A stretch of 64,000 nucleotides of DNA from an uncultured Eubacteriales bacterium. Its GTDB lineage: Bacteria > Bacillota > Clostridia > Oscillospirales > CAG-272. Under the pieces are notes generated by a model. It saw only the letters and a program-made list of their open reading frames with translations, ran no database searches and was not told the origin of the DNA. Shown piece after piece: positions 29,821 through 60,855 of this stretch. How positions within the stretch are numbered: position 1 is the stretch's first letter; every line of letters begins with the position of its first letter. The stretch lies in the NCBI GenBank assembly GCA_934385225.1, contig CAKRPQ010000001.1:4876-68875 (forward strand), given 5' to 3'. A program made the position numbers and the translations under genes.

Positions 29821-30220
29821 TATAGTCGGGGCGGTTGTGCTTGGATTATCGCAAACGACACCCCCGACTTTGCCTCCCCTGTGTACAAGGGGAGGCGGCG
29901 GAGGAGCGCAAGCCCTCCGACGGAAGGGTTGTCCGTCTATCTGCTGACGTGTGGTCTTGCAGTCTCAATCGACGCCCTTTCTTTTGACGTAGCAGGCGCA
30001 AAAGAAAGGGCTTAGCCCAAAGAAAAGCGCCGAGAACATTTCGCCTCTCCATCGTGCTTCGGGAAGAACCGTAGGTTCTTCATAGTCGGGGCGGTTGAAC
30101 TTGGACTAAATCGGACTTCACCCCCGACTTTGCCGTCTGCGGACGGCGACAAGGGCTATGCGCCCTTGACCGCACCGCCTTTTGCAAAAGGCGGGCGAAA
30201 ACTCTCAATCAAAGGCTGGA
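29821..30220. repeat. hairpin-module array A
   Basis: Module order is b'-c-d-e-f-g-a-b'-h-i-j-k (see findings). Examples: AGTCGGGG...CCCCGACT at 29824-29869 and again at about 30084-30130; GCCGTCTGCGGACGGC at 30132-30147. Confidence 0.85.
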
Positions 30221-36418: not shown

Positions 36419-37675
36419 TCACTCGCCTGCGCGCATAATATCTCCCTCTTTTACGTCAAACGGCACGCGCGCATAAAATTTCATTGCGGGGTGCGGCGCG
36501 CTTTCTATCCTCTCGCCGTCCTCCGAATAAAGCTCGGAAACGCGGAAAGCGCGTCCCGTTTTTCCGGGTGTTATCATCTCGGCGGAGTCGCCCTCTTTCA
36601 CCTTATTTCTCTGCACGAACGGGTAAAGAGTGCCGTCCGCCGTCTCTTTTATGCCCGCGAGCCGTTCGGGCATTGATTCCGCGCCGCAGAGCGCCGTCGC
36701 AAAGTACGCCTTGTCTCTTATATAGCCGTTCATCGTTCCGAGGTTTGCCTCATCGAGCGGGTGACCGAAGTAGTATCCCGTGCAGTATTCTCTGTGGCTG
36801 ACGCTTTCAAGCTCGCGCAGAAGCGCGGGGTCGTTTTTATACGCCGCGCCGTCTTTTTCGTACGCGTCCATCGCCATTCTGTAAGCGTTCGTGACGACGG
36901 CGGTGTAGTACGCGCTCTTCATTCGTCCCTCTATCTTGAAGCTGTCGATACCGCTCTCCGTAAGTTCGGGAATGTGTTCGATCATACACATATCCTTCGA
37001 GCCGAAAACGAACGTCCCGTCCTGCGTCTGTTCTATCGGCAGAGGCACGTCGGGTCTTTTCTCTTCGACGAGGGCATAATTCCAGCGGCAGGGCTGCGTG
37101 CAGGCGCCGCGGTTTGCATCCCTGCCCGTCAGATAGTTCGAGAGCGTGCAGCGGCCGCTGAACGAGACGCACATCGAGCCGTGAATGAACGCTTCGAGTT
37201 CGAGACCGCGCGGAATGTCGGCTTTTATCTCCTTTATTTCGGCGAGGCTCACCTCTCTCGCGAGAACGACGCGCTTTGCGCCGAGGTTGTGGAACGCGCG
37301 GCAGACGGGAGCGCTGACGACGCCCGCCTGTGTCGAAATATGCACCTCCATATCGGGAATAATGCTTTTAACCGTATCAAGCACGCCGAGATCCGCGATT
37401 ATCATAGCGTCGATACCGATGTCCTTTATTTCGTCAAGAAATCTGCGGAGCGCGGGGTATTCGTAGCCGCGCGGCATTGTATTCACCGTAAGATAAATTT
37501 TCTTCCCGCGCCCGTGCGCGTACAAAACGGCGTTTTTAAGTTCCTCCGTCGTGAAGTTATCGGCGGCGGAGCGCATACCGAACATATTTCCGGCAAGATA
37601 CACCGCGTCCGCGCCGTAGAGGAACGCCGCTTTCATTTTTTCAAAATTTCCCGCAGGGGATAAAAGTTCGGGCAT
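36419..37675 (-). CDS. U32-family peptidase
   Basis: MPELLSPAGNFEKMKAAFLYGADAVYLAG ... the E-x-F-x-H-G-x-M-C block (EAFIHGSMCVSFSGRC) is the typical U32 signature. Confidence 0.9.
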   Translation of the reverse strand: MPELLSPAGNFEKMKAAFLYGADAVYLAGNMFGMRSAADNFTTEELKNAVLYAHGRGKKIYLTVNTMPRGYEYPALRRFLDEIKDIGIDAMIIADLGVLDTVKSIIPDMEVHISTQAGVVSAPVCRAFHNLGAKRVVLAREVSLAEIKEIKADIPRGLELEAFIHGSMCVSFSGRCTLSNYLTGRDANRGACTQPCRWNYALVEEKRPDVPLPIEQTQDGTFVFGSKDMCMIEHIPELTESGIDSFKIEGRMKSAYYTAVVTNAYRMAMDAYEKDGAAYKNDPALLRELESVSHREYCTGYYFGHPLDEANLGTMNGYIRDKAYFATALCGAESMPERLAGIKETADGTLYPFVQRNKVKEGDSAEMITPGKTGRAFRVSELYSEDGERIESAPHPAMKFYARVPFDVKEGDIMRAGE

Positions 37676-37774
37676 ATTTTTTCCTTTCAGAGAGGTTTTC
37701 GAGTTGTTGAAAATTCTTTTTCAAAGCAATTTGTCATTTTGTTTAATCAAATGAAGCCGACTCCCGCTTTTTCT

Positions 37775-38056
37775 CCCATGCGACAGGCGCTCTCTCTTTT
37801 TAGCCTCCCTTGTGTAAAGGGAGGTGGATTGCCACGAAGTGGCAAGACGGAGGGATTGTTTCTACACCGCCGTGAAGATATGCAGTCCCGTTTTCCACTT
37901 TTTCTTTGACACCACAGGCGCAAAGATAAAAGCATAGATGCCTTCGGCATCTCACAAAAAGAAACGCCGAGAACATTTCGCCGTCTGCGGACGGCGACAA
38001 AAGGCTCTGCCTTTTGAATCCGCAAGCCTTTGAAAAGGCTTGACCTAAACTTTATA
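37775..38056. repeat. hairpin-module array B
   Basis: Contains GCCTCCCTTGTGTAAAGGGAGG, GCCGTCTGCGGACGGC (37980-37995), AAAAGGCTCTGCCTTTT (within 37996-38020) and CAAGCCTTTGAAAAGGCTTG (38023-38042). It lies downstream of the radical SAM gene. Confidence 0.85.
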
Positions 38057-38071
38057 ATCGTTTTTTGCCTG

Positions 38072-38932
38072 CTATTTCCTTTTCGCGGCAAAGCCGCAGG
38101 ACGCGCAGAGAGGTTCGCGGAAAATGCGGTGTTCAAGGTCGTACCGCAAAGTTCTCGCGCGAGCCGACAGGAGAATTTCGCCGAGCGTATTTTCGTATAT
38201 ATTTCCGAGCGGAATCCTGCCGTTCCTGTCAAGGCAGCATGGCACGACAGTTCCGTCCGCGAGGACAGCCGTCTGCGTCAGAAGTCCGTGGCAGAGCGCG
38301 TTTTTTCCGCAGTCGCGGGGCTTGTCCGTCTCTTTCGCGTCGGGCCAGTCGAATTTTTCTCCGTATTCGACAAAAACGTGCGTCGCGATGCGCACTCCGC
38401 GATGATTTTCGACCCACTCCTCCCTTTCGGGCGGAAAATTTTTACGCGCGCGGGCGAGAATTTTTTCGTTAAGTGTGTTTTTTCCGCCCTCGCCGTCGTT
38501 CCAGAGGCGCAGAACGGCAAATTTACCGTTTTCGGCGAGCGTTTTCGCCGCGGAAAAGCAGTTTTCGAGATATTCGTCGAAATCCCCGCCGTCCGCGTTC
38601 GCCTCAAACGAGTGGAGCGAAACGCAGACCGTTTTAAGCCTTTCGCTTCCGAGAAGAGTCGGCAGTTTTTCGCGGAGGAGCGTTCCGTTCGTCGTTATCT
38701 TGACAGAGGACGGAAATTCGTCCGCAATTTTGAGTATTTTATCAAGTTCGGGGTGCAGAAGCGGCTCGCCCATAACGTGCAGAAAGATATTTTCGGGCTT
38801 TTCGCCCGAAACCGCCCTCATCGCCGCGCGGAATTCCGCGGGCGACATAAAGCGCGCTTCCCTCTCGTGTCCGGGGCAGAACGAACAGGCAAGATTGCAG
38901 ACATTCGTAATTTCAATATAAATATTCTTCAT
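38072..38932 (-). CDS. radical SAM protein with a C-terminal SPASM/twitch-like Cys cluster
   Basis: The CNLACSFC (CxxxCxxC) motif is at aa 12-19. C-terminal cysteines are ...CHGLL...VVPCCLD...CASCG. Confidence 0.85.
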   Translation of the reverse strand: MKNIYIEITNVCNLACSFCPGHEREARFMSPAEFRAAMRAVSGEKPENIFLHVMGEPLLHPELDKILKIADEFPSSVKITTNGTLLREKLPTLLGSERLKTVCVSLHSFEANADGGDFDEYLENCFSAAKTLAENGKFAVLRLWNDGEGGKNTLNEKILARARKNFPPEREEWVENHRGVRIATHVFVEYGEKFDWPDAKETDKPRDCGKNALCHGLLTQTAVLADGTVVPCCLDRNGRIPLGNIYENTLGEILLSARARTLRYDLEHRIFREPLCASCGFAAKRK

Positions 38933-38965
38933 AGGAAAAAGCGCGGATATCGCGGGCGCAGAGTA

Positions 38966-39595
38966 TTACTCCCCGTCCTTTACGGCGATAAGTTCTCCCG
39001 CAAACGGGAGCGACATTATCCAGTCGCAGAACGTATGCCACTCCGCCAGTTTATGCGTGCGGCGCGCGTAGTAGATATTTACAAGGTTCTCGTAGTTGAG
39101 CGTAACCGTTCTCATCTGATTATAGCTTGACGGGAGAATCTGTATCATATTGTGCCAGTGGCTTCTGTCGTCCTTGTCCGCGATAAACTGCCGTCTCTCC
39201 TCTTCAAGGAAATCTATTATCGAATCGAGCATTTTAAGTCCCTCGTCCGTCAGGCGGTCGCAGCTGAAATCCTCGCGCGAGAACGGCTTTGAGTGAATTT
39301 TGTGCATTGTGGAGCAGGAATTTGCCGTCGTGCCGACCTTATATGTGTCGAACTCTTTCCACCAGTAGAGCGGAGCCGTTATATCGACGGAAACGATTAT
39401 CTGGCGGAGAAATTTTCTGTGATCGCTGCCCGCCTTCGCGAGTCTTGTCGCAAGCGAAAGATCGTTTTCGCCGAAAACGAAATTGCCGTCCGCATCGGTA
39501 AAGCTGTCCATTCTCTCCCAGCTGTTCATCGGGTTTCTCGCGCCGCGGATCGCGTTCTCAAAGTTCATGACCGAAGTTCTTTCTGTCTTTATCAT
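38966..39595 (-). CDS. ThyX-fold (flavin-dependent thymidylate synthase-like) protein lacking the RHR motif
   Basis: The block order parallels ThyX: SDHRKFLRQIIVSVDITAPLYWWKEFDTYKVGTTANSCSTMH, then ILPSSYNQMRTVTLNYENLVNIYYARRTHKLAEWHTF. The position of RHR-x7-S reads TYK-x7-C-S. Confidence 0.7.
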   Translation of the reverse strand: MIKTERTSVMNFENAIRGARNPMNSWERMDSFTDADGNFVFGENDLSLATRLAKAGSDHRKFLRQIIVSVDITAPLYWWKEFDTYKVGTTANSCSTMHKIHSKPFSREDFSCDRLTDEGLKMLDSIIDFLEEERRQFIADKDDRSHWHNMIQILPSSYNQMRTVTLNYENLVNIYYARRTHKLAEWHTFCDWIMSLPFAGELIAVKDGE

Positions 39596-39655
39596 TTCAC
39601 TACCTCCGTTTTATAAAATATTAACATATCCGCGCGCATAAGTCAAGAGAAAATC

Positions 39656-41599: not shown

Positions 41600-42275
41600 T
41601 TCGGGCTTCACCGCGACTTCGCCTTTTGTGCTGTATGTCGGGAAGAATCCGCAAGGATTCTTCATAGGTGGAGCAGTTTATACTTGGATTTTATTAGACT
41701 TCACCTCCACCTTCGCCTTTTGTGCTGTATGTCGGGAAGAATCCGCAAGGATTCTTCATAGGTGGAGCAGTTTATACTTGGATTTTATTAGACTTCACCT
41801 CCACCTTCGCCTTCCCCGGTGGCGGGAAGAGACTTTCCATAAAGGAAAGTCAGACCGCGATAGCGGTGGATGAGGTGTTGCGAACACTTTTAGCGGAACT
41901 TCACGTCGTGTTTAGGCTCCCTTGTGTAAAGGGAGCTGTCACCGCAGGTGACTGAGGGATTGTCTATCCGCCGAGGTGCAGTCGTGCAGCACCATTTAAC
42001 GCCTTTTCTTTTGGTGTTGCAGGCACAAAAGAAAAGGCTTTGCGAAAAGAAAAGTGCCGCAAGAGGGTTTCGCTCTCTGCGGAGAGCGACAAGGGCTATG
42101 CGCCCTTGACCGCACTCGCCTTTTGAAAAAGGCGAGACCCAAAACTTTCGACAAAGGCGAGGTGAAAACTTTCAACAAAGGCTTGACCTAAACTTTCACT
42201 AACTTTTTTGCCTCCCCTTTATTCTTTGATAAAGGGGAGGTGGCACGAGCGCAGCGAGTGACGGTAGGGTTCTCC
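41600..42275. repeat. hairpin-module array C
   Basis: Module order is (a-b)x2, c, d/e, f (42001-42038), g, h' (42072-42087), i (42088-42110), j (42115-42136), k, plus an extra CCTCCCCTTTAT...ATAAAGGGGAGG hairpin at about 42211-42240. It lies between convergent pepF and spoIIE. Confidence 0.85.
41617..41814 (+). repeat. 94-bp tandem duplication inside array C
   Basis: 41617-41710 and 41711-41804 are identical when read base by base. The first ~10 nt of a third unit follow. The duplication produces twin ORFs at 41628 and 41722. Confidence 0.9.
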
Positions 42276-57454: not shown

Positions 57455-58135
57455 TTTTTTAGCCTCCCTTGCCATAAAAAGTCGGTAAAAGTTTTGGTCA
57501 ACCTTTTTCAAAAGGGTGCAGATTCAAAAGGCAGAGCCTTTTGTCGCTCTCCGCAGAGAGCTAAGTCGGGGGTGAAAAAAGCGATGACCTCAATTCTACC
57601 GCCCCGACTATGAAAACCCTACGGTTTTTCCCGAAGCACGATGTGGAGGAGAAATGTTCTCGGCGCTTTCTTTTTGTGAGATGCCGAAGGCATCTATACT
57701 TTTATCTTTGCGCCTGTCGCATCAAAAGAAAGGGCGTTATTGGATACTATGCAACCGCACGGCTACATTAGCCTCCCGTTGTACTTCGGGAAAAACCGTA
57801 GGGTTTTCATAGGTGGAGCAGTTTACACCCTCTATTATTGCAGACCTCACCTCCACCTTTGCCTCCCCTGTGTAAGGGGAGGTGGCGGAGGTGCGCAAGC
57901 CCTCCGACGGAAGGGTTGTCCGTCTGCGTGCCGCCGTGAAGTCGTGCAGCACTCATTAACGCTCTTTCTCTTGATGCGACAGGCGCAAGAGAAAGAGCTT
58001 CGCAGAAAGAGAAGCGCCGAGAATGTTTCGCCGTCTGCGGACGGCGACAAGGGCTATGCGCCCTTGACCGCACTCGCCTTTTGTAAAAGGCGAGACGAAA
58101 ACTTTCAGTCAACGGCGAAGCTAAACTTTCACCCG
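57455..58135. repeat. hairpin-module array D (two sub-arrays in inverted orientation)
   Basis: The left half (about 57480-57770) carries modules k,j,i,h,b',a,g,f as reverse complements. The right half (about 57785-58135) carries a,b,c,d,e,f,g,h,i,j,k forward. Confidence 0.85.
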
Positions 58136-60299: not shown

Positions 60300-60855
60300 G
60301 TGCCGTTTGTTGAAAAGTGAACAACCCTTCCGTCGGAGGGCTTGCGCACCTCCGCCACCTCCCCTTACACATGGGAGGCTGAAAAACGGGGTGAAAGTTT
60401 CGCTCGCCGTTTATTAAAAGTTTTCGTCTCGCCTTTTTCAAAAGGCGAGTGCAGTCAAGGGCGCATAGCCCTTGTCGCCGCTCGCAAGCGGCGAAATGTT
60501 CTCGGCGTTTCTTTTTGTGAGATGCCGAAGGCATCTATGCTTTTATCTTTACGCCTGTCGCATCAAAGAAAAAGCGGAAAACGGGACTGCACGACTTCGC
60601 GTCAGCGGAAAAACAATCCCTCAGTCACCTATCTGCCGAGGTGAAGTCTTGCAGTGCCTATTAACGCCCTTTCTTTTGATGCGACAGGCGCAAAAGAAAG
60701 GGCTTTGCCCAAAGAAAAGCGCCGAAAAGAAGTTTCGCCGTCTGCGGACGGCGACCGCCGTCGTCGGCGGCTCACGCAAACTTTTGAAAAAGTTTGATCA
60801 AAACTTTTAACAAGCGGCGAGACGAAAACTTTTAACAAACGGCGAAACTTTCGTC
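60300..60855. repeat. hairpin-module array E, between cysE and cysS
   Basis: Reverse-orientation modules d,c then k,j (60428-60449), i (60454-60476), h'' (60477-60492), g,f,e,d. These are followed by forward e, f (60666-60703), g, h (60737-60752), an extra CCGCCGTCGTCGGCGG hairpin, and k-like AAAACTTTT repeats. Confidence 0.85.

Follow-up and report, generated by a model that had tools for sequence, protein, structure and literature searches.

The 209-amino-acid (aa) open reading frame (ORF) on the minus strand at 38966..39595 of the 64-kb stretch of clostridial DNA analysed here (the window, from contig CAKRPQ010000001.1) is a member of a very large, uncharacterised and strongly constrained branch of the fold of ThyX, the flavin-dependent thymidylate synthase. 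By analogy with known synthases, we put the chances at about even that this family carries out a thymidylate-synthase-like one-carbon transfer to a deoxypyrimidine nucleotide. An earlier interpretation made from the letters of the window (the sequence-only reading) had noted the block order of ThyX in this ORF, and had proposed that it works together with an adjacent radical S-adenosylmethionine (SAM) enzyme. The first of these ideas is borne out below; the second is not.

The 209-aa protein has no match in Pfam or NCBIfam, even at an expect value (E) of 0.1, nor in PADLOC or the sequences of the Protein Data Bank (PDB), and a profile of the family likewise has no match in the PDB. PHROG 6721, a phage family whose function is not known, is matched over the full length (E 7.6e-70; protein residues 1-204 lie on positions 7-216 of the 218 in the profile). 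An AlphaFold2 model computed from a diverse alignment of 97 sequences (47-78% identity) has a mean predicted local distance difference test score (pLDDT) of 95.1 and a predicted template-modelling score of 0.89; with a shallow alignment (76-90% identity to the query) the pLDDT was only 53. When this model was compared with the PDB using Foldseek, all 50 of the 50 matches listed were ThyX (Helicobacter pylori, Thermotoga maritima; 3ah5, 1o26, 4gt9 and others), with E of ~2e-9, template-modelling (TM) scores of 0.6-0.7 and identities of 14-18%. No structure of ThyA, the other class of thymidylate synthase, was among the Foldseek matches listed, and tblastn with Escherichia coli ThyA was blank at this gene. 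In a library of viral structures, the top three matches were uncharacterised phage proteins of 30-47% identity, and those beyond the top three were mostly annotated as ThyX or thymidylate synthases. In its succession of helices and strands, too, the model appears to follow ThyX.

Traces of the same relationship are found by sequence methods. Pfam Thy1 is matched by only 3 of 47 diverse relatives; one of these, P0200, which is 50% identical to the window protein, reaches the gathering score (29.3 versus 24.8 bits, residues 8-196). Using hhalign in a permissive local mode, with T. maritima ThyX (query sequence confirmed identical to PDB 1kq4/1o26) and six phage ThyX sequences from annotated records on the ThyX side, residues 2-205 are colinear with residues 3-207 of the T. 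maritima protein, while the family against one ThyX sequence gave merely a 33-column local match. Because the structure settles what the sequence methods barely show, we accept that the 209-aa protein has, as modelled, the ThyX fold, and that the homology is real yet remote.

Within this fold, the active site looks remodelled, rather than decayed into a dead scaffold, because the family shows almost no variation at ~40 polar or aromatic positions. Residue conservation was read from 97 diverse family members, and in none of them was RHR or S-x-R-Y found under any register. In place of the ThyX stretch R-H-R-x7-8-S-x-R-Y, these proteins carry an invariant D-T-Y-K-V-G-T-x-x-N-S-x-S-T-M-H, which forms part of the longer family signature G-x-R-N-P-x-x-S-W ... 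H-x-K-x-x-R ... A-P-x-Y-W-W-K-E-x-D-T-Y-K-V-G-T-x-x-N-S-x-S-T-M-H ... R-x-x-H-K-L-x-E-W. Residues R20, N21, S25, W26, D30, D45, K61, R64, T84, Y85, K86, S93, S95, T96, M97, H98, R162, R178, H181, E185 and W186 are all approximately invariant. The strings quoted in the sequence-only reading (H59-R-K-F-L-R64, D83-TYKVGTTANSCSTMH98, ILPSSYNQMR, NYENL and LAEW) are all present, and its observation that TYK replaces RHR agrees with the position of T84-Y85-K86, S-x-R-Y being absent too. Its statement that the protein has lost its catalytic residues is right for the RHR/S-x-R-Y signature and too strong for the site as a whole, where a new invariant polar set has appeared. The equivalences between T. 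maritima ThyX and the family are approximate because the hhalign support is weak; they read as follows.

H53 of ThyX: H59 of the family, kept
N163 of ThyX: N167 of the family, kept
R174 of ThyX: R178 of the family (near-invariant), kept
R78-H79-R80 of ThyX: T84-Y85-K86 region of the family, replaced
S88-x-R90-Y91 of ThyX: S95-T96-M97-H98 (or C94..M97) of the family, replaced; the counterpart of R90 is M97 or T96, according to the register
R147 of ThyX: I151 of the family, replaced
E58 of ThyX: R64 of the family, charge flipped
R165 of ThyX: E169 of the family, charge flipped

RHR is itself not universal among annotated ThyX proteins, since three phage proteins annotated as ThyX or thymidylate synthase are without a strict RHR yet keep S-R-R-Y (KYV...DHT, KHQ and KHE; L092 from Bacillus phage Glittering, L093 from Yersinia phage PYps4T and L094 from Roseobacter phage CRP-1).

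In an exhaustive HMMER scan of 1.84 billion cluster representatives (50% identity), 3,854 clusters passed E<=1e-3, of which 919 also passed E<=1e-30, and a pattern scan of the GTDB species representatives yielded at least 596 confirmed loci, the best 80 of which all come from gut or rumen Clostridia assemblies. Public names of family members are 'hypothetical protein' throughout; we found no description of the family in the literature searched, an absence that is no proof of its being unpublished. Over genome pairs that have a housekeeping neighbour in common, the median identity of the family is 78-86%, versus 83% for TrpS, 90% for SerC, 62% for Dxs and 46% for NadE, and the family is about as conserved as its housekeeping neighbours. 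Homologues in cultured phages and plasmids belong mostly to anaerobes (Clostridium, Clostridioides, Enterocloster, Fusobacterium, Desulfovibrio, Selenomonas, Cetobacterium and Monoglobus). HNH/NUMOD4 homing endonucleases interrupt several family members, as is typical for nucleotide-metabolism genes of phages. In P0152, P0194, P0214, P0226, P0227 and P0243 (400-478 aa), HNH_3/NUMOD4/HTH modules of ~170-200 aa are inserted in frame and start at about residue 120-150, within or beside the variable segment that precedes the long helix.

The neighbours of the family gene are informative about its possible role. Among 106 non-redundant downstream neighbours, the most frequent Pfam is DHFR_1 (dihydrofolate reductase, DHFR); NAD synthase, guanylate kinase and others come next. 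DHFR begins 12 nt past the family gene in Catenibacillus-type genomes, and a metagenome scan seeded with this Lachnospiraceae-type subtype placed DHFR within 6 kb of the family gene in 22 of 80 loci: directly downstream and co-directional, with gaps of 3-62 nt, in 14, and nearby in 8 further loci. This adjacency survived substantial divergence, since the DHFR identity is merely 50-71%. In L186, L192, L205, L209, L237 and others, the family gene and DHFR are followed by an NfnA/NfnB- or PyrK/GltD-like (ferredoxin-NADP oxidoreductase-like) pair, which could supply reduced nicotinamide cofactor (NADPH) to DHFR or could be mere lineage synteny.

Other carriers show other arrangements. Housekeeping neighbours shift within the window's own lineage (dxs, trpS, serC, nadE, pth, mfd). 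At seven GTDB loci (L017, L021, L030, L031, L037, L054 and L057) a gene of ~374 aa, in which a deoxynucleotidase domain of NT5C type is joined to a guanylate-kinase-like one, lies after dxs and directly downstream of the family gene. The two domains are separate genes in the phage-type locus L103, which reads family gene, guanylate-kinase-like, NT5C, NrdD, dUTPase; a guanylate-kinase-like gene is directly downstream in five viral loci, and in P0257 the family protein is itself fused to a guanylate-kinase domain. In phages, the family gene lies among clamp loaders, polymerase, ligase and primase, and neither ThyA nor canonical ThyX was found within 10 kb of it in any of 80 viral loci. Phage phiCTP1 has NrdD and a full replisome of its own; a scan of 57.8 of its 59.2 kb showed no ThyA, ThyX or DHFR. 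The 64-kb window, the only part of the genome searched for them, likewise contains no thyA, thyX or folA. In Monoglobus, the family gene lies 15 nt past gyrB in a dnaN-recF-remB-gyrB string (L265); no Monoglobus record is among the 60 matches listed for each of a thyA and a thyX search, in which the coverage of this genus is not known. The L265 record, Monoglobus pectinilyticus NZ_OY725739.1 (368 kb), is filed as 'plasmid 15' and looks like a chromosome fragment with the replication-origin gene cluster.

Fold and neighbours point, by analogy, to action in deoxypyrimidine/thymidylate metabolism, with deoxyuridine monophosphate (dUMP) as the most likely one-carbon acceptor in what would be a folate-dependent reaction; the substrate, product and cofactor named here are those that we infer. 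ThyA oxidises its folate to dihydrofolate and so needs DHFR; ThyX uses flavin as the reductant, releases tetrahydrofolate and has no dependence on DHFR. That the family gene repeatedly sits directly upstream of DHFR suggests dihydrofolate as a product. Because the protein has a ThyX fold, a replaced flavin-contacting motif and the thyA slot of a thyA-folA-like operon, we suggest a thymidylate-synthase analogue that would yield dihydrofolate. In a tentative version, which we regard as possible and on balance doubtful, a ThyX-fold synthase without flavin would take both the methylene and the hydride from methylene-tetrahydrofolate and release dihydrofolate to the adjacent DHFR, a third mechanistic solution. 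In such an enzyme, the apparently retained uracil-polarising arginine R178 would polarise dUMP, as in ThyX, while the folate-stacking histidine H59, also apparently retained, would stack the pterin where flavin would otherwise be faced; methylene transfer would come first, followed by hydride transfer from the folate itself. The motifs that bind flavin adenine dinucleotide (FAD) and the dUMP phosphate (RHR, S-x-R-Y and R147) have given way to a different invariant set in the family.

Several observations weigh against a thymidylate-synthase role. The hhalign probability linking the family to ThyX is ~1%, which is statistically weak without the structure. The dUMP-phosphate arginines of ThyX, R90 and R147, appear not to be kept, and the 97 members have no invariant cysteine nucleophile, position 94 being C or T. 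DHFR adjacency was seen only in the Lachnospiraceae-type set, with 0 of 80 own-lineage loci and 0 of 80 viral loci showing it. At L205, the order is a genuine thyA of Bacillus subtilis type (divergent), DHFR, the family gene and a second DHFR, so that there is no simple displacement of thyA there. Finally, the triad that the family gene forms in phages with a kinase and a nucleotidase also looks like a module for modified nucleotides, and would fit such a pathway equally well.

This last resemblance raises the alternative that the family makes a modified deoxypyrimidine, for example 5-hydroxymethyl-dUMP, 5-hydroxymethyl-deoxycytidine monophosphate (dCMP) or 5-methyl-dCMP, instead of deoxythymidine monophosphate (dTMP); the kinase would phosphorylate the new nucleotide and NT5C would clear away its canonical counterpart, as happens in hypermodification pathways of phage DNA. 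The L103 string of family gene, kinase and NT5C does lie beside NrdD and dUTPase, and beside a pair of C5 DNA methyltransferases. Viral loci have recurrent clusters that were assigned, by eye from the sequence, as MazG-like and HD-like. The family is abundant in phages, and the remodelled site could mean a different reaction. We nevertheless consider this alternative unlikely. DHFR, the most frequent partner, would be of no use to a hydroxymethylase, which releases tetrahydrofolate; and chromosomal copies of the gene occur in housekeeping contexts in hundreds of Clostridia species, are conserved like housekeeping enzymes, and make wholesale DNA hypermodification there improbable. Tight linkage to DHFR is also opposite to the known pattern of ThyX; that DHFR is coupled in genomes to ThyA-type synthases, and that ThyA and ThyX are anti-correlated in phages, is established and is restated in PMC7824862. 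The DHFR linkage of the family argues against an ordinary flavin-dependent ThyX that has merely diverged, binding FAD through other residues, using NAD(P)H and releasing tetrahydrofolate. Such divergence would be compatible with the shared fold, with P0200 passing Thy1, with the KHQ and KHE of some annotated phage ThyX proteins and with a K86 that could still contact phosphate. However, both signature blocks, including R90 (M97 or T96 in the family) and R147 (I151), have been swapped for an invariant set, and the window protein gets no score from either Pfam Thy1 or the NCBIfam models; we assign this alternative a low probability. Alternatively, the protein may be no synthase at all and simply travel with DNA-precursor genes, either as a regulator that binds nucleotides or folates or as a hydrolase with dUMP, dTMP or folates as substrates. 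Loss of most canonical catalytic and ligand residues of ThyX, lack of a conserved nucleophile and the genuine thyA at L205 would all fit. What makes this improbable is that the dense invariant polar set looks catalytic (R20, N21, S25, D30, D45, K61, R64, Y85, K86, S93, S95, T96, H98, R162, R178, H181 and E185), and that the family holds the usual slot of a thymidylate synthase, before DHFR and beside a deoxynucleoside monophosphate (dNMP) kinase, dUTPase and NrdD.

The proposed partnership with the radical SAM enzyme has to be judged from the locus itself, which is laid out as follows.

38966..39595, minus strand: ThyX-fold ORF, 209 aa (ORF call, phrog_6721 match, AlphaFold, Foldseek and conservation table)
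38072..38932, minus strand: radical SAM/SPASM (twitch-type) ORF, 286 aa (Pfam; CNLACSFC near the N-terminus)
38933..38965, minus strand: spacer of 33 nt separating both ORFs, without a terminator-like hairpin (sequence)
39618..39646, minus strand: sigma-70-like promoter match, TTGACT, 17 nt, TAATAT, with TG (consensus scan; a pattern match only)
37700..38071, no strand assigned: strain-variable insertion of dispersed hairpin repeat units, ~373 nt (alignment with L001 and L002)
37952..37936: terminator-like hairpin inside the repeat insertion (pattern scan)
36419..37675, minus strand: U32-family protein gene (Pfam, NCBIfam), followed by holB and ricT

Both ORFs are thus co-directional and 33 nt apart, as the sequence-only reading had them. 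The promoter-like match sits ~20 nt 5' of the start codon of the ThyX-like gene and is followed by a GGAGGT ribosome-binding site; pepF lies upstream and is divergent. Beyond the radical SAM gene the same-strand gene string continues downstream with the U32-family gene, holB and ricT. Co-transcription of the ThyX-like and radical SAM genes in this strain is plausible on this layout, because the spacer has no terminator-like site and a promoter-like site stands upstream. The neighbour was rightly recognised as a radical SAM protein with a C-terminal cysteine cluster: the 286-aa protein exceeds the Pfam cut-offs for Radical_SAM (59.9 bits, 4.6e-16, residues 6-125) and SPASM (48.5 bits, 1.1e-12, residues 214-279), and its CxxxCxxC core motif reads CNLACSFC. 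It reaches no NCBIfam equivalog cut-off (MoaA, tungsten-cofactor maturase, viperin, anSME-like and others); the top match, TIGR04317, gives 62.7 bits against a cut-off of 380, and these matches cover the N-terminal core only. PADLOC pVip gives 45.8 bits over a partial region.

The sequence-only reading suggested that these two genes could be a nucleotide or nucleic-acid modification pair; in such a system the ThyX-like scaffold would bind the substrate and leave the chemistry to the radical SAM enzyme. The close co-directional spacing with its upstream promoter-like site would suit such a pair, as would the same arrangement in four contigs with an identical 209-aa protein, and the phage and plasmid carriers of the family are mostly anaerobes, as radical SAM chemistry would lead one to expect. 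Yet co-conservation, which had been set beforehand as a test of the idea, was not found. Around the ThyX-like gene, tblastn detected no radical SAM homologue in 80 other GTDB species (out to 8 kb) or in the 80 metagenome loci (out to 6 kb), and 80 viral contigs likewise have none close to it; five annotated phage or plasmid regions bearing the family gene have no radical SAM gene, and Radical_SAM is not among the recurrent Pfams of the 106 downstream neighbours, which were drawn from genome, viral and metagenome loci. The adjacency is limited to this species, its only recurrences being in those four contigs. Two orthologues of the radical SAM protein (60% and 47% identity) lie elsewhere, one after nagB/nagA and one beside a FemAB gene, with no ThyX-like gene nearby. 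The two proteins also evolve at very unlike rates, top matches being 47-60% identical for the radical SAM protein and 77-80% for the ThyX-like protein, and in the sister contig L001, one of the four, it is the U32-holB-ricT string that the radical SAM gene abuts. We conclude that the radical SAM gene is an unrelated neighbour, its adjacency a lineage-specific accident of gene order, and that it is probably co-transcribed in this species only through that local order; a functional pair is highly improbable.

The end of the putative transcript also differs between strains. Between the radical SAM stop and the U32 start, the window and contig L002 share the 373-nt insertion; L001 is without it, and in the alignment only 24 nt separate its radical SAM gene from the U32 gene. 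The suggestion of a shared transcript ending in a repeat array (array B of the sequence-only reading) therefore stands as to plausible co-transcription, whereas the ending in the array is a strain-level feature, because L001 is without the insertion. Short hairpin units of the insertion recur in the window at 57488-58050, 60355-60755, 30028-30152 and 41911-42196, which suggests a dispersed intergenic repeat family, similar to repetitive extragenic palindromes (REP) or miniature inverted-repeat transposable elements (MITE), that varies among strains. Just downstream of pepF, at 41606-41813, a 94-nt unit is present in 2.2 tandem copies with 97% matches; two ORFs, at 41628 and 41722, arise from it and have the same N-terminus. 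An Rfam scan of 37.0-42.5 kb gave nothing credible. The U32-family protein (36419-37675), whose gene directly precedes holB-ricT, scores 312 bits against the model for TrhP, a tRNA U34 hydroxylase, with a cut-off of 534. In B. subtilis, tmk is found upstream of holB.

The ThyX-like gene is worth following alone; the radical SAM pairing is unsupported. Thymidylate synthesis has two known enzyme classes, ThyA and ThyX, both of them drug targets, and ThyX was discovered by complementation of a thyA-null strain. If the family makes dTMP, predictions of dTMP supply, folate dependence and sensitivity to antifolates and fluoropyrimidines would change for abundant gut Clostridia and their phages, as would metabolic reconstructions in which this step might be missing and views of the chemistry open to a ThyX scaffold that is without its flavin motif. 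If it is a flavin-free synthase, it could be a source of dTMP in many gut Clostridia and their phages, hidden from current annotation, and its carriers could be scored as lacking thymidylate synthase. Even if it is no synthase, the family deserves a Pfam entry.

Comparison with known systems places the two genes apart. The nearest solved relative of the radical SAM protein is BtrN, and with BtrN/anSME-type enzymes it shares the CxxxCxxC core, a C-terminal auxiliary cysteine cluster and small size; the alignment to BtrN (PDB, E 1.9e-10) is limited to the N-terminal half, and no equivalog cut-off is reached. For the ThyX-like family, a precedent for altered substrate specificity in the ThyX fold is PolB, the ThyX-like uridine monophosphate C5-methylase of polyoxin biosynthesis (PDB 4p5a turned up as a ThyX relative). 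PolB keeps flavin chemistry and the ThyX motifs and belongs to an antibiotic gene cluster; the present family, in contrast, is without those motifs and occurs in housekeeping and phage replication contexts.

The strongest functional analogy is with the ThyA-folA (thyA-dfrA) operon of Firmicutes and td-frd of phage T4. There too a gene of ~200-300 codons lies directly upstream of DHFR and co-directional with it, beside genes for dNMP kinase, dUTPase and ribonucleotide reductase; however, the ThyX-like fold is unrelated to ThyA, the family has no conserved catalytic cysteine, and L205 has a real ThyA as well. With ThyX itself (PF02511 Thy1; T. maritima TM0449, 1O26; H. pylori 3AH5) the family shares the fold at TM 0.6-0.7, a length of ~210 aa, the approximate equivalents of H53, N163 and R174, a place in phage DNA-precursor modules and invasion by homing endonucleases. 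It differs in lacking RHR, S-x-R-Y and, as it appears, R90 and R147, in the flipped charges at E58 and R165 (R64 and E169 in the family), in a window protein that falls below the Pfam and NCBIfam models, in its link to DHFR, and in its phage and plasmid hosts, which are mostly anaerobes where those of canonical phage ThyX are chiefly cyanobacterial, actinobacterial and proteobacterial. The family thus stands within the ThyX superfamily by fold, and outside ThyX by hidden Markov model, signature and relation to DHFR, and apparently by its phosphate arginines.

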